From NCBI GenBank assembly GCA_036494465.1, contig DASXOJ010000147.1:22955-86954 (forward strand): DNA of 64,000 bases, written 5' to 3'. The position numbers and the translations under genes are program-made. The stretch comes from Pseudonocardiaceae bacterium. Lineage in GTDB: Bacteria > Actinomycetota > Actinomycetes > Mycobacteriales > Pseudonocardiaceae. Shown piece by piece: positions 27,728 to 32,745 of this stretch. Numbering within the stretch: the stretch's first letter is position 1; each line of letters starts with the position of its first letter. The notes beneath the pieces were generated by a model. It was not told the origin of the DNA and did no database searches. It saw only the letters and a list, made by a program, of their open reading frames with translations.

Positions 27728-29023
27728 GTGACCGCGACAATCGCCGAGAAGACCCCGCTTGCCACGAACCACTTCAAGCTGGCCTGGTGGGGGCTGGCGC
27801 TCGGCGTCTACTCCCAGATCGGGGTCGCGCTGTTCTGCTGCGTGGTCACCTTCGTCGGGCTGATCCCGGTGTGGGTCGGCATCCCGGCCTCGCTGATGTT
27901 CTTGGGCCTCACCCAGCGCTTCGCCGACCAGCACCGGTTGTGGTCGGCGCGGGTGATGGGCGTCCCGATCGCGCGCCCGTACAAACCGACACCGGAGGGG
28001 TGGTGGCTGGCGCGGATTCGCGGCCACCTCACCGACAGGCAGTCCTGGCGCGACCTGGCCTGGCTGCTGGTGAACGCGACCGCGGGCCTGTTCCTGAACC
28101 TGCTGCCGATCTGGTTGCTGGCCGGTGTCGCGTGGTACCTGGTCCTGCCGTTCCTGTTCTTGGTCACGCCGCCCGGCGTCTTCGACACGAACTACGGCTT
28201 GTTCCGGGTGGACAGCGTCGGCACCGCGTTCCTCACCTACGCGTTCTCGATCGTCAGCTTCGTTCTGTTCTGGCGGCTGACCGGGCCGATCATGCGCCTC
28301 AAGGCCCGACTCGACCGCTGGCTGCTCGGCCCGGTGCAGAGCGAGGCACTGGCCAAGCGGGTCGAGCAGCTGACCGAGTCACGCGCGGACACCGTGGACA
28401 CCCAGGCCGCCGAGCTACGCCGGATCGAACGCGACCTGCATGACGGTGCCCAGGCGCGGCTGGTCTCGCTCGGCATGAGCCTGGGCATGGCGGAAGAACT
28501 GCTGGCCAGCAACCCGCAGGCGGCGCAGGGCCTGCTCGCCGAGGCACGCGAGTCGACCGGGCTGGCCCTGTCCGAGCTTCGCGATCTGGTCCGCGGCATC
28601 CACCCGCCGGTACTCGCCGACCGCGGCCTGGACGGCGCGGTGCGCGCGCTGGCGATGGCCTCGCCGCTGCCGGTCGAGGTCACCGTCGACCTGCCCGGCC
28701 GCCCGCCCGCGCCGGTCGAGTCCGCGATGTACTTCGCGGTCGCCGAGACGCTGACCAACCTGGCCAAGCACAGCGGCGCCACCAGCGCCTGGATCCGGGT
28801 CAGCTACACGGAGGGCAGGCTCGGCGTCATGGTCGGCGACGACGGCCGGGGCGGCGCGGTCGCCGAGAGCGGCGGTGGCCTGCACGGCATCGAACGGCGT
28901 CTGTCAGCATTTGACGGAATCGTGCACATCGCCAGCCCACTGGGTGGGCCGACCATCGTGACCATGGAGCTGCCGTGCGTGTTGTCCTCGGTGAAGATCT
29001 CGCCCTCCTCCGAGACGGCCTGA
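27728..29023 (+). CDS. Two-component sensor histidine kinase (HisKA_3)
   Basis: N-terminal TM sensor; ERDLHDGAQARL, ETLTNLAKHS, DDGRGG, GGGLHG. Confidence 0.92.
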   Translation: MTATIAEKTPLATNHFKLAWWGLALGVYSQIGVALFCCVVTFVGLIPVWVGIPASLMFLGLTQRFADQHRLWSARVMGVPIARPYKPTPEGWWLARIRGHLTDRQSWRDLAWLLVNATAGLFLNLLPIWLLAGVAWYLVLPFLFLVTPPGVFDTNYGLFRVDSVGTAFLTYAFSIVSFVLFWRLTGPIMRLKARLDRWLLGPVQSEALAKRVEQLTESRADTVDTQAAELRRIERDLHDGAQARLVSLGMSLGMAEELLASNPQAAQGLLAEARESTGLALSELRDLVRGIHPPVLADRGLDGAVRALAMASPLPVEVTVDLPGRPPAPVESAMYFAVAETLTNLAKHSGATSAWIRVSYTEGRLGVMVGDDGRGGAVAESGGGLHGIERRLSAFDGIVHIASPLGGPTIVTMELPCVLSSVKISPSSETA

Positions 29024-29619
29024 TCCGGCTGCTCGAAGCGCACGACTTCGAGGTCGTCGAGGCCGTGGACAACGGGCCATCGCTGTTGCACGCGCTGATC
29101 GAGCACAAGCCGGACGTCGCGGTCGTCGACGTCCGGCTGCCGCCCACGTTCACCGACGAGGGACTGCGCGCCGCCATCGCGGCGCGCGCCGAGGTGCCCG
29201 GCCTGCCGGTGCTGGTGCTGTCCCAGTACGTCGAGCAGCTCTACGCGCGCGAGCTGCTCTCCGACGGCCAGGGCGGGGTCGGCTACCTGCTCAAGGATCG
29301 GGTGGCGAACGTCGGCCAGTTCCTGGATGCGGTGCGCCGGGTCGCCGACGGCGGCACCGCGATGGACCCCGAGGTGGTCTCGCAACTGCTGGCGCGCAAC
29401 GCGGGCCGTGAGCCGTTGCACAAGCTGACGCCGCGCGAACGGGAAGTGCTCGAACAGATGGCCGAGGGCCGGTCCAACGCGGCCATCGCGGGCAAGTTGT
29501 TCATCACCGAAAAAGCGGTGTCCAAGCACACGAACAACATTTTCGCGAAAGTCGGACTGCCCCAGTCGAGTGACGACAATCGCCGGGTTCTCGCAGTGCT
29601 CGCCTTCCTGAACAACTAA
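28975..29619 (+). CDS. NarL/LuxR family response regulator
   Basis: EDLALLR, DVRLPP, GYLLK, LTPREREVL. Confidence 0.93.
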   Translation: MRVVLGEDLALLRDGLIRLLEAHDFEVVEAVDNGPSLLHALIEHKPDVAVVDVRLPPTFTDEGLRAAIAARAEVPGLPVLVLSQYVEQLYARELLSDGQGGVGYLLKDRVANVGQFLDAVRRVADGGTAMDPEVVSQLLARNAGREPLHKLTPREREVLEQMAEGRSNAAIAGKLFITEKAVSKHTNNIFAKVGLPQSSDDNRRVLAVLAFLNN

Positions 29620-29659
29620 CTCCGCCGTATGCTGCTTGCTTGCCGGATCGGAGGATCTG

Positions 29660-30457
29660 ATGAGCACAGCGGCGGACTGGGTGCCCAGTGACATGGATGT
29701 CGGCGTACCCAGTGCGGCCCGGGTCTACGACTACCTGCTCGGCGGTGCGCACAATTTCGACGTGGACCGGATCGTCGGCGAGAAAGTGCTTGCCGCTGCG
29801 CCGAATGGCCGACAGATCGCGCGGTCCAACCGGGCTTTCATGAGTCGCGCCGTGCGGTTCATGGTGGCCGGCGGCATCCGCCAGTTCCTGGACCTGGGCT
29901 CGGGGATCCCGACCGTGGGCAATGTGCACGAGATCGCGCAGCACGCCGATCCGGACTGTCGCGTCGTCTACGTCGATCACGATCCCATCGCGGTCGCGCA
30001 CAGCCAATTGATGCTGTCCGGTAATCCGCTCGCGGTCGTGGTGAACAAGGATCTGACCGACCCGAAGTCGCTGCTCAAGAATTCGACCGTGCGGAAATTT
30101 CTCGATTTCGACAAACCCATCGGCTTGCTGATGGTCGCGGTGTTTCATTTCGTGCCGGACGACAAGGAACCGGCAGAGATTGTCAAAACCTACCTGGACG
30201 CGATTCCGGCCGGCTCGTACGTGGCGATATCGCACCTGACCGCCGACCAGATGGCCGATGAGATGGCGGGTGTCGTCGAGGCGATGCGCAACAGCCGCGA
30301 TCCGATGTACTTCCGGAGCTATGCCGATGTCGCCGCATTGTTCGACGGGCTGGACGTGGTCGAGCCGGGTGTGGTGAGCGCGCCGTTGTGGCACCGGGAC
30401 TACGGCGACGACGTCGACCAGGAGGGCGTCTACGCCGGGGTCGGTCGCAAGCTCTGA
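29660..30457 (+). CDS. SAM-dependent methyltransferase (actinobacterial Methyltransf_19 type)
   Basis: PSAARVYDYLLGG, QFLDLGSGIP, VYVDHDP; GGAGG RBS; TATGCT -10 at 29628. Confidence 0.88.
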   Translation: MSTAADWVPSDMDVGVPSAARVYDYLLGGAHNFDVDRIVGEKVLAAAPNGRQIARSNRAFMSRAVRFMVAGGIRQFLDLGSGIPTVGNVHEIAQHADPDCRVVYVDHDPIAVAHSQLMLSGNPLAVVVNKDLTDPKSLLKNSTVRKFLDFDKPIGLLMVAVFHFVPDDKEPAEIVKTYLDAIPAGSYVAISHLTADQMADEMAGVVEAMRNSRDPMYFRSYADVAALFDGLDVVEPGVVSAPLWHRDYGDDVDQEGVYAGVGRKL

Positions 30458-30465
30458 TCCAGTGT

Positions 30466-30515
30466 GCTGTCAACCGAGGTTGACAGCGCCCGTGGTGTCA
30501 ACCTAAGTTGACACC
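30466..30515 (+). promoter_or_regulatory. Twin palindromic operators TGTCAAC-N4-GTTGACA embedded in a leaderless promoter (TTGACA 30480, TAAGTT 30504)
   Basis: gctgtcaaccgaggttgacagc (30466-30487) and ggtgtcaacctaagttgacacc (30494-30515); ATG lies 7 nt after the -10. Confidence 0.8.
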
Positions 30516-30516
30516 C

Positions 30517-30744
30517 ATGGATGGAGTTCAACTCGCCGAGCAGGCGAGCAGTCGTGATCCCGAGATCGGGTTGCGCGCCGTCCGGGCCCTGCGCGAACTG
30601 GCCGACCGGCTGGAATCGTTGCAGGTCCAGAGCGCGCGCGACGCGGGCTGGTCGTGGCAGGAGATCGCCAACCGGCTCGACGTGACCCGCCAGGCGGTGC
30701 ACAAGAAACACAGCGGCCGACGACTTTTCGGCAAGGAGGACTGA
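30517..30744 (+). CDS. Small HTH DNA-binding protein (ClpC2 N-terminal-like)
   Basis: ARDAGWSWQEIANRLDVTRQAVHKKH HTH. Confidence 0.82.
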   Translation: MDGVQLAEQASSRDPEIGLRAVRALRELADRLESLQVQSARDAGWSWQEIANRLDVTRQAVHKKHSGRRLFGKED

Positions 30745-30745
30745 G

Positions 30746-31303
30746 ATGTTGGAGCGATTCACCGAACAGGCGCGCGCCGCGGTCGTCACGGTCGCGCAGC
30801 AGCAGGCGCGGCACGTGCCGAGTTCGCGCGACGGCGGCAAACCGGCGGTCACCGTCGCGCACCTGCTGCTCGCCATCGCCGACGAGGAAACCGGCCCGGC
30901 GGCGGAACTGCTGCACGCGCACGGCATCACCGGATCGGCGGTGCGGGACCGGATCCGCGCCGATCAGAAGTCCGAACTGGACGCTGAAGCGCTCGCAACG
31001 CTCGGCATCGACCTGAGCGCCGTGCGGGAAGCCGCCGAGGCGAGTTTCGGGCCGGGCGCGCTGGAGGGCGGTGGTACCGCACGCGGGCGGATTCCGTTCG
31101 GTGCCAACGCGAAGCGCGTGCTCGCGCTCGCCGTGCGGGCCACCGGTGACGTGCGGCGCAACCGGATCGGCACCGAACACGTGCTCTACGGCGTGCTGCG
31201 CGCCCGCGACGAGGCGACCGGCGAGATCCTGGCCGCGCTGAACGTGGACTCGACGAGGCTCGCCGACGAGGCGGCCGCGTTGGTCGGCCCGGCCGCCGCC
31301 TAG
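30746..31303 (+). CDS. Stand-alone Clp N-terminal repeat domain protein (no AAA+ module)
   Basis: ERFTEQAR...AHLLLAI and IPFG..AKRVL...IGTEHVLYGVL repeats. Confidence 0.85.
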   Translation: MLERFTEQARAAVVTVAQQQARHVPSSRDGGKPAVTVAHLLLAIADEETGPAAELLHAHGITGSAVRDRIRADQKSELDAEALATLGIDLSAVREAAEASFGPGALEGGGTARGRIPFGANAKRVLALAVRATGDVRRNRIGTEHVLYGVLRARDEATGEILAALNVDSTRLADEAAALVGPAAA

Positions 31304-31338
31304 CCGACCAATCCGTTGACCGGGGTGCGAATGCCCTT

Positions 31339-32145
31339 CTAGGCGAGGCGTTCGCGCAGGAACTCGACGACCCGCTCGCGCGCGGTCAGCGCCGGGTGAC
31401 CCGGTTGTTCGCGCACTTCTGCGGTGAGTACGGAGTGCGCGCGCTTGCTGAACCCGGTCGGGTTGCCCGGTGCCGAGTCCAGCTCGATCACGTCGAACGC
31501 GTCGCCGAGCCGGTTCTTCAAGGTGGTGAAGCGGTCCTTGGGCGAGGTGCCGTCCTCGCTGAACCGCAGCCCCATCACGCACAGGTTGTCGTTGGTGGTC
31601 CGCTGCACGACCGTGGCCAGTTCCTTTTCGGACAGGCCGGGGTCGGCGCGGTGGGCCGCGTTGATCGGGAACGGCACGGACGGCTGGCTGAGCACGGGCG
31701 CGAGCACCACGTCCTCGACGGCGACGGCCAGCGCGAACCCGCCGGTGAAGCACATGCCGATCACGCCGACGCCCTTACCGGGGGTGCGCCCGGCGAGATC
31801 CTTGGCGACCGCGCGCAGGAAACCGGTGATCGGTCGCTCGGCGTCCAGCGCGAACGCGCGGAACTCCGAGGCGACGCACAGCCTGCCGATCACGCCGAGC
31901 GCGTAGCCGGCCGTCATCGGCTTGCCGGGCGTGCCGAACGGGGAGGGCACCACGACGGTGAAGCCCTGATCGACCAGGTGGTCGGCGAGGCCGAGCACCT
32001 CGGGGGTGATCCCGGGGACCTCGGGGATCAGCACCACCCCGGGGCCATCGCCCTTCTCGTAACAGTCGTAGGTCAGGCCGGCTCCCGTGAAGGGCGCTTT
32101 GCGCCAGCCGGTCAGGTCCGAGGTGGGTGCCGTGTCGGTGGTCAC
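31339..32145 (-). CDS. Dienelactone hydrolase family protein
   Basis: GMCFTGG nucleophile elbow, PEVPG, AHSVLT. GTG start 32145. Confidence 0.85.
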   Translation of the reverse strand: MTTDTAPTSDLTGWRKAPFTGAGLTYDCYEKGDGPGVVLIPEVPGITPEVLGLADHLVDQGFTVVVPSPFGTPGKPMTAGYALGVIGRLCVASEFRAFALDAERPITGFLRAVAKDLAGRTPGKGVGVIGMCFTGGFALAVAVEDVVLAPVLSQPSVPFPINAAHRADPGLSEKELATVVQRTTNDNLCVMGLRFSEDGTSPKDRFTTLKNRLGDAFDVIELDSAPGNPTGFSKRAHSVLTAEVREQPGHPALTARERVVEFLRERLA

Positions 32146-32152
32146 GAGCGGA

Positions 32153-32710
32153 TCATGCCACCGGTGCGATGGGCAGGCCGAGTCCGGTGAGCATGATGTC
32201 GAGCATCTTGCCCGCGCGCGCCACGCCGTCCTCCTCGGTGGCGATGGAGACCGCGTGCGCCATCCGCAGCAGTTCGACCACCTCGATGTCGCTACGCACC
32301 ACGCCGGATTCCTGCAAGGGCGTGAGCAGTTCGCCCGCGGTCGCGCGCATGGCTTTGCGGCAGTAGTCGAAGTTCTCGCCGTTGTGGTCCATCGCGGTCT
32401 TGAGCGAACGGGCCAGGCCCTTGTTGGCGAAGATGAACTCGAGCTGGGCGTGCATCCAGGCACAGAGCGCCTGCTCGGGTGGCAGTTCCTCGCGCAGCCG
32501 CTTGCCAAGGTCGGCCAGCGCGATGATCTCCTCCCGGTAGATGGCTTCGATCAGCGCGTCCCTGGTGGGGAAGTGGCGGTAGAGGGTGCCTGCGCCGACG
32601 CCCGCCTTCTTCACGATCTCGTCGAGCGGCGCGTCGATGCCGTGTTCGGCGAAGACCTGCTTGGCCACGGCGACGATCCGCGCGGCATTGCGCTGGGCGT
32701 CGGCACGCAT
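32153..32710 (-). CDS. TetR family regulator
   Basis: RADAQRNAARIV...GVGAGTLYRHFPTR; GAGGAGG RBS. Confidence 0.9.
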   Translation of the reverse strand: MRADAQRNAARIVAVAKQVFAEHGIDAPLDEIVKKAGVGAGTLYRHFPTRDALIEAIYREEIIALADLGKRLREELPPEQALCAWMHAQLEFIFANKGLARSLKTAMDHNGENFDYCRKAMRATAGELLTPLQESGVVRSDIEVVELLRMAHAVSIATEEDGVARAGKMLDIMLTGLGLPIAPVA

Positions 32711-32745
32711 GGGTTCGATCCCTCCTCGAGTCCACATCGAGTATC

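Follow-up and report, generated by a model that had tools for sequence, protein, structure and literature searches.

The 64,000-nucleotide stretch analysed here (hereafter the window), from contig DASXOJ010000147.1 of a Pseudonocardiaceae bacterium, carries two adjacent genes on its forward strand (Table 1). The first encodes a 75-aa helix-turn-helix (HTH) protein and the second a 185-aa protein consisting of a stand-alone Clp_N domain. The two open reading frames (ORFs) lie in different frames and are separated by a single base (G 30745). The Shine-Dalgarno sequence of the Clp_N gene lies inside the end of the HTH gene, implying that translation of the second gene is coupled to that of the first. 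The initial annotation of this locus had proposed a split relative of ClpC2, with the DNA-binding and Clp-N parts on separate polypeptides, and the stop codon of the HTH gene, the 1-nt gap and the change of frame confirm that the two are separate. ClpC2 in the strict sense, known as Rv2667 and from M. smegmatis and S. thermoviolaceus, is one polypeptide of ~230-260 aa with an N-terminal dimerisation/HTH region and a C-terminal Clp_N domain, which the window pair is not. We take the pair to be an intact module of the ClpC2/ClpC3 kind, made up of two genes and self-repressed, that works by the circuit proposed below, and assign this interpretation a probability of about 0.7. The identity and architecture of the module we hold with high confidence.

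Table 1. Features of the HTH/Clp_N locus and of its surroundings in the window.
Feature	Position	Strand	Remarks
HTH gene	30517..30744	+	ATG 30517, TGA 30742-30744; 75 aa
Stand-alone Clp_N gene	30746..31303	+	ATG 30746, TAG 31301-31303; 185 aa
Shine-Dalgarno AAGGAGG of the Clp_N gene	30733-30739	+	Within the last HTH codons (G-K-E-D), 6 nt before ATG 30746
Distal operator TGTCAAC-CGAG-GTTGACA	30468..30485	.	16-bp core GTCAAC-N4-GTTGAC; core starts 48 nt upstream of the ATG
-35 hexamer TTGACA	30480-30485	.	In the right half of the distal operator
Proximal operator TGTCAAC-CTAA-GTTGACA	30496..30513	.	Ends 3 nt before the HTH ATG; core at -20
-10-like TAAGTT	30504-30509	.	Inside the proximal operator
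Thr6 of RFT (residues 4-6)	30761..30763	+	N terminus of alpha1; half of the predicted retained ClpC2-type phospho-arginine pocket
T36-V37-A38-H39	30851..30862	+	Degenerate repeat-1 "GTEH"; marker of second-pocket loss
Family-specific segment, residues 47-106	30884..31063	+	Holds ~30 residues missing from the ClpC1 N-terminal and ClpC2 C-terminal domains
PFG117-119	31094-31102	+	Together with TVAH marks loss of the second phospho-arginine pocket
G142-T143-E144-H145	31169..31180	+	Repeat-2 GTEH; other half of the predicted retained phospho-arginine pocket
Sensor histidine kinase	27728-29023	+	Upstream of the pair, before the response regulator
NarL/LuxR-type response regulator	28975-29619	+	Upstream of the pair
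S-adenosylmethionine-dependent methyltransferase (PF04672)	29636-30457	+	E 9e-91; ends 59 nt before the HTH start
Dienelactone-hydrolase-family protein	31339-32073	-	Converges on the Clp_N gene; stop codons 35 nt apart
TetR/SbtR-like regulator	32153-32737	-	Converges on the Clp_N gene

The source genome is derived from a soil metagenome (8.56 Mb in 308 contigs), and its nearest named relatives are metagenome-assembled genomes (MAGs) of Pseudonocardiaceae. Soil-metagenome contigs from four independent runs span positions 30440-31320 with 0-3 substitutions and no indels, and the split is kept in relatives, excluding the sequencing frameshift that the initial annotation had raised against it. Programmed recoding that would fuse the two ORFs is also ruled out. 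The frame relation between the HTH and Clp_N genes varies among loci (-1 in 20, 0 in 6, +1 in 4, +2 in 19, and +3 in 14), and therefore no conserved recoding joins them.

Relatives of both proteins are widespread. The small HTH protein (~76 aa) is represented by 1334 protein clusters at 65-90% identity, and the ~183-aa Clp_N protein by 1594 clusters, mostly at 40-45% identity. The split module occurs in at least 580 species, including members of Actinomadura, Streptosporangium, Kitasatospora, Streptomyces, Kribbella, Nocardia, and Mycolicibacterium. An even sample of the phylum yielded an HTH match at E <= 1e-8 in 105 of 401 genomes, about 84 of which are strong and split-type by hand count. 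A survey of fused versus split forms, as suggested at the outset, shows that the split recurs in many genera and differs from the fused form by its operator spacing: a same-strand Clp_N ORF lies directly downstream of the HTH gene in 79 of 81 loci, with a gap of -8 to +7 nt in 70 of the 77 scored, and a purine-rich equivalent of the Shine-Dalgarno sequence is found within the last HTH codons of related loci. No third gene is conserved beside the pair among 80 loci. Split and fused forms coexist in the source genome. Similarly, 11 genomes (f5/g6) have one strong HTH match and one weak match within a frame of 194-338 aa, and we read the weak match as the N-domain of a fused ClpC2. Clp_N domains of ClpC1, fused, and split proteins form distinct groups in a tree, in which the window protein falls in a well-supported subclade of seven members; the tree does not polarise fusion versus fission.

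The HTH protein had been thought to resemble the N-terminal DNA-binding part of ClpC2, and two comparisons agree. BLASTP against the N-domain of the source genome's own fused ClpC2 gives 40% identity over 55 aa (E 4e-9), and an hhalign comparison of 18 split-type HTH proteins with 10 fused ClpC2 N-domains gives a probability of 97.6% (E 4.8e-12, 47 columns). Judged by its sequence, the 75-aa protein is homologous to the N-domain of ClpC2, of which it lacks the first ~14 residues. The peptide quoted from it in the initial annotation, ARDAGWSWQEIANRLDVTRQAVHKK, is present in the sequence, and the ClpC2 string given there for comparison is nearly identical to that of real fused ClpC2 proteins (ARRSGASWTDIGKSMGVTKQAAQKRF). 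Across 18 diverse homologs, 34 of the 75 positions are invariant. An AlphaFold2 (AF2) model (predicted local distance difference test score [pLDDT] 88) has a long helix (residues 15-42) followed by a helix-turn-helix (47-54 and 58-66). Pfam matches are all below threshold (HTH_11, E 2e-4). The acidic tail of the HTH protein (..GKED) was considered as a ligand that docks into a phospho-arginine (pArg) pocket in the manner of ClpC2 helix alpha8; this idea was set aside because the tail codons form the Shine-Dalgarno sequence of the next gene in related loci, which explains their conservation at the DNA level.

Contig C239 of the source genome encodes a canonical fused ClpC2 (232 aa). A further ClpC2 paralog of 204 aa lies on contig C99 (L007:1249-1860, minus strand; P0002). 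It keeps the first helices of the N-domain and both Clp repeats and is without the ~26-residue HTH stretch. Its operators are TGTCAAT-N5-GTTGACG and TGTCAAT-N5-ATTGACG at -47/-19. Lacking the HTH stretch, this paralog would need a repressor that acts in trans; the presumed candidate is the fused ClpC2 of C239.

The 185-aa protein (P0004) matches Pfam Clp_N (PF02861) with two repeats (E 1.5e-15; 57.5 bits against a cut-off of 20.7), and the Pfam search finds no ATPase domain in it. Sequence and structure comparisons with the PDB concur, substantiating the initial view of this protein as a Clp-N domain without an ATPase. A phmmer search retrieves the ClpC1 N-terminal domain (NTD) at E 1.8e-15 and the ClpC2 C-terminal domain (CTD) at E 1.3e-9 and 4.8e-5, and a Foldseek search with an AF2 model (pLDDT 85) aligns the ClpC1 NTD with a template modelling (TM) score of 0.82 (E 7e-8) and the ClpC2 CTD with TM scores of 0.62-0.69. 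By both searches, the 185-aa protein resembles the N-domain of ClpC1 more than the C-domain of ClpC2. It retains the two Clp repeats and the F80/K85 helix of the ClpC1 NTD (Rv3596c; PDB 3wdb, 3wdc, 6cn8, and 8ibp), whereas it is without the AAA+ modules of ClpC1 and has one predicted pArg pocket where ClpC1 has two. A canonical Clp N-domain has eight helices; the model of the window protein has 10.

Two insertions distinguish the window protein from the ClpC1 NTD. An insertion of 6-7 residues in the alpha1-alpha2 loop, relative to the ClpC1 NTD, is specific to the window's subclade. The other is shared by the split Clp_N proteins, which have ~30 more residues between the repeats than either the ClpC1 NTD or the ClpC2 CTD. 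The segment that holds these residues ends in the most conserved motif of the split family, LDAEALATLGIDLxxVRxxxExxFGPGAL (residues 78-106), and is a candidate for the surface that contacts the HTH protein.

Upstream of the HTH gene are two 18-bp palindromes of the form TGTCAAC-N4-GTTGACA, spaced 28 bp apart and overlapping the putative promoter. Our promoter reading is based on the actinobacterial TANNNT -10 element and on the published clpC2 promoter. Since the proximal palindrome ends 3 nt before the ATG, the mRNA of the HTH gene is probably leaderless. The clpC2 operator, CGTCAAC-n5-GTTGACG, is found 1-2 nt before the ORF, usually in two copies, and covers the -35 and -10 elements of a promoter with a leaderless transcript (Taylor et al. 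2023, PMC10030653). The half-sites, their doubling, their positions, and the leaderless layout all match between the two promoters; the spacer differs, being N4 in the window and N5 in clpC2.

This difference in spacing extends across the family. We scanned 80 split loci from named genomes together with the window, allowing up to two mismatches. Two GTCAAC-N4-GTTGAC sites, 27-29 bp apart, are present in 79 of these 81 loci, and N5 sites in none. Conversely, each of 12 fused ClpC2-like loci (two from the source genome and 10 from other genomes) has two N5 sites and no N4 site. In the sampled loci, the spacer rule thus holds without exception: fused modules have N5 and split modules have N4. The proximal site starts at -19/-20 in split loci in which the start codon is placed directly after the second palindrome, and the distal core of the window, at -48, occupies the family-wide position. 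Elsewhere in the source genome, a single GTCAAC-N4-GTTGAC site was found, GTCAACTGCGGTTGAC (C181:37184-37199), probably by chance. It lies inside the ORF of a major facilitator superfamily (MFS) transporter, and the module therefore appears to regulate only itself; a wider regulon was dismissed on the same ground.

A sub-family of split loci has operators of the GTCAGC-ATAT-GTTGAC / GCTGAC type (L078, L081, L086, L087, L089, L090, L093, and L098, from Kribbella, Trebonia, Streptomyces, and MAGs). Most of them encode a longer Clp_N protein (195-292 aa) that carries additional residues at its C terminus.

Three elements form the pArg pocket of ClpC2, namely the N terminus of alpha1 and the loops alpha2-alpha3 and alpha5-alpha6, and the contacting threonines are 97 residues apart (Anderson et al. 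2026, preprint, 10.64898/2026.06.30.735635). The distance from the RFT threonine to the repeat-2 GTEH threonine is 97-100 residues in fused ClpC2 proteins. The initial annotation had paired RFT with GTEH as an intact pocket in the window protein and taken VAH and PFG as signs that the other had degenerated; the first assignment agrees with the threonine spacing of the ClpC2-pArg structures, and TVAH and PFG are both present. The window protein is thus predicted to keep the same single pocket (alpha1 Thr plus repeat-2 GTEH) as fused ClpC2. For a wider comparison, pocket A was scored as an alpha1 Thr/Ser with a repeat-2 [TS]E, and pocket B as the Thr/Ser of PFT with a repeat-1 [TS]E. All 14 ClpC1 NTDs have both pockets, with none in the other three classes. 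Among 12 fused ClpC2-like proteins, one has both and 11 have A only, leaving none with B only or with neither. The 84 split Clp_N proteins are spread more widely: five have both, 10 have A only, 39 have B only, and 30 have neither. Seven of the 10 split proteins with A only are the window protein and its close relatives, which share TVAH/AVH in repeat 1 and PFG in repeat 2, and T6 and T143/E144 are intact throughout this seven-member subclade. The window protein therefore seems to retain the ClpC2-type pocket, unlike most of the split family. Of the residues that contact cyclomarin and rufomycin in ClpC1 (F2, F80, K85, and E89), the window protein keeps two of four (L2, F118, K123, and A127), and family-wide they are kept in 73/77, 60/77, 69/77, and 61/77 proteins, respectively. 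The 185-aa protein is presumed to be a ligand-binding decoy and sensor.

The split module also bears on ClpC3 of M. smegmatis. MSMEG_3761 has been named clpC3, and the adjacent MSMEG_3760 is annotated as a "conserved hypothetical protein"; the two are induced together by cold shock, with log2 fold changes of 3.45 and 3.40, respectively (PMC10454040). Passages on ClpC3 in two reviews describe it as induced by cyclomarin and ecumicin, as binding both, and as having no pArg receptor (PMC12678426, PMC10864484). Perrone et al. (2017, PMC5660060) reported a 16-bp motif containing a 6-bp palindrome that occurs twice upstream of MSMEG_3760, at -47 and -19 relative to its ATG, and to which the neighbouring TetR protein does not bind. 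Operator cores of split loci occupy these positions family-wide, those of the window being at -48 and -20, and both systems have a stand-alone Clp-repeat protein encoded immediately after a small gene. At 19 of 20 bases, the reverse primer published for MSMEG_3760 agrees with the 3'-terminal sequence of split-type HTH genes from M. mageritense and M. rutilum (..QKYNRR); a metagenome-derived HTH homolog (..QKHNRR) also matches at 19 of 20. Mycolicibacterium and Nocardia species carry an HTH gene paired with a 188-aa Clp_N gene, and their Clp_N proteins contain the EALxxLGIDLxxVRxxxExxFGxGAL motif. From the primer match, the motif positions, and the annotation, ClpC3 is very probably the Clp_N partner of a split pair and MSMEG_3760 its HTH protein. 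The reported loss of the pArg receptor in ClpC3 agrees with the Mycolicibacterium homologs that we read, which have neither pocket, in contrast to the window protein with its predicted pocket A. Our literature search found no paper that assigns MSMEG_3760 as a regulator or ties the palindromes to the MSMEG_3760 protein.

By analogy with ClpC2, we propose the following circuit. HTH dimers on both operators would keep the pair repressed, and the Clp_N protein would associate with them non-covalently, supplying the sensing and the higher-order contacts that the C-domain provides in fused ClpC2; ligand-controlled complex formation had been suggested in the initial annotation. Binding of pArg-marked proteins or of ClpC1-targeting cyclic peptides to the Clp_N protein may then loosen the repressor; both genes would be induced, and the accumulating Clp_N protein would buffer ClpC1 as a decoy. 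The spacer, shorter by 1 bp, would insulate this circuit from the fused ClpC2 circuit in the same cell. The step in which sensing acts in trans is the least secure, and we put it just short of even odds. Slightly below this stands the full picture of a ClpC2 sensor-repressor on two polypeptides, in which recognition of the GTCAAC half-sites would need only the HTH protein and a separate mimic of the ClpC1 NTD would sense in trans, possibly via the invariant family-specific segment.

Several observations weigh against this interpretation. The proposed contact between the HTH and Clp_N proteins rests on analogy with ClpC2, and the far stronger conservation of the HTH protein is not typical of a complex whose members co-evolve closely. 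Taylor et al. (2023, PMC10030653) placed the DNA contacts of ClpC2 on arginines of the C-domain; if this is valid here, the HTH protein alone may not suffice. Neither a phmmer search of the HTH protein against the PDB, which gave nothing significant, nor a Foldseek search with its model, which gave only insignificant generic HTH matches, retrieved the crystal structure of the ClpC2 N-domain. A scan for E. coli-type promoters called none upstream of the HTH gene, and by reverse transcription-PCR, MSMEG_3760 and MSMEG_3761 of M. smegmatis were assigned to separate transcripts (PMC5660060). On the ligand side, the pArg pocket was assigned from sequence alone, and the F2L and E89A differences make cyclomarin binding by the window protein uncertain.

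The strongest alternative is that the HTH protein is an autonomous repressor that holds the level of a Clp_N decoy by negative autoregulation, while the Clp_N protein neither binds it nor senses; any induction would then come from turnover of the HTH protein or its titration by something else. Such an arrangement would suit an HTH protein that forms a complete small fold, has a long helix fit for dimerisation, and is conserved independently of its fast-evolving neighbour, and the varied pocket content of the Clp_N proteins (30/84 with neither) makes a fixed sensing role less than obvious. It is harder to reconcile with the strong inducibility of the M. smegmatis module: in the review passages cited above, ClpC3 is induced by the very ClpC1-NTD ligands that it binds, which is simplest if the ligand binder talks to the repressor. 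The tight translational coupling suggests stoichiometric partners, and the Clp_N protein has an invariant family-specific segment unrelated to its ligand pockets. We therefore consider this alternative unlikely, at about one chance in four by our reckoning of these points.

A third possibility is a toxin-antitoxin-like pair, in which the HTH protein would be an autorepressor of the antitoxin type, in the manner of RelI from M. tuberculosis, and the Clp_N protein would be the toxin. RelI is among the best PDB sequence matches of the HTH protein (9sdc, E 0.14; PMC13284704), and a small autoregulated HTH gene coupled to a second gene resembles the layout of type II toxin-antitoxin systems. The RelI match is not significant, however, whereas that to the ClpC2 N-domain is, and the HTH protein is paired with a Clp_N domain that is non-catalytic and related to the protective decoys ClpC2 and ClpC3; this domain matched no toxin family. 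We rejected this reading as highly improbable. RelI is the antitoxin of RelS-RelI (Rv2663-Rv2664; PMC13284704), and the locus numbers of M. tuberculosis put this system within a few genes of clpC2 (Rv2667).

Finally, the notion of a pseudogene, a fused clpC2 split by sequencing error or a recent frameshift, draws on a combined length (75 + 185 aa) that approximates fused ClpC2 (232-259 aa) and on the gap of only 1 nt, but it is next to impossible given a split with its own Shine-Dalgarno sequence and start codon in 79/81 loci of many genera and in varying frames, the indel-free metagenome assemblies, the intact fused ClpC2 elsewhere in the genome, the systematic difference in operator spacing, and the separate tree groups of the Clp_N domains.

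Parts of this picture are already established: the ClpC2 system has been characterised, the Clp_N half is probably known as ClpC3, and the split is a common two-gene variant. New here are the assignment of the repressor, the strict N4/N5 rule, and the pocket pattern, including the ClpC2-like pocket predicted for the window protein. ClpC1 is a leading antitubercular drug target, and ClpC2 and ClpC3 blunt both ClpC1-directed antibiotics and BacPROTAC degraders. The assignment gives ClpC3 a candidate dedicated regulator, and the orphan palindromes described upstream of MSMEG_3760 in 2017 a candidate binding protein. By placing DNA reading and ligand binding on two proteins that can be purified and deleted separately, the split module opens two questions to experiment, namely which domain of ClpC2 recognises the operator and by what route ligand binding leads to DNA release, and is a natural test of the claim by Taylor et al. 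that arginines of the C-domain contact DNA. If the two-polypeptide reading is true, the sequence reader of fused ClpC2 would be the HTH of its N-domain and not the arginine helix of its C-domain proposed in 2023. N4 versus N5 would then be an insulation of one base pair that allows two or three paralogous decoy circuits to share one cell without cross-talk. The pocket pattern, with A here and B or none elsewhere, suggests decoys tuned to different signals across actinomycetes; on the same reading, the sensor would have been adapted to a different input from one lineage to another through retention of pocket A, as in the window, pocket B, both, or neither.

The genes around the pair are listed in Table 1. 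Downstream, no terminator-like hairpin was found in the 35-nt gap between the stop codons of the Clp_N gene and the convergent dienelactone-hydrolase-family gene. Upstream, the response regulator has counterparts at related loci. A NarL/LuxR-type regulator adjoins all three ClpC2-like modules of the source genome as well as the M. mageritense pair (L005:579-1244, L007:596-1249, and L147:543-1196). This association is not conserved in the 80-locus sample and may be chance. The response regulators of the window and of contig C99 look like close paralogs.

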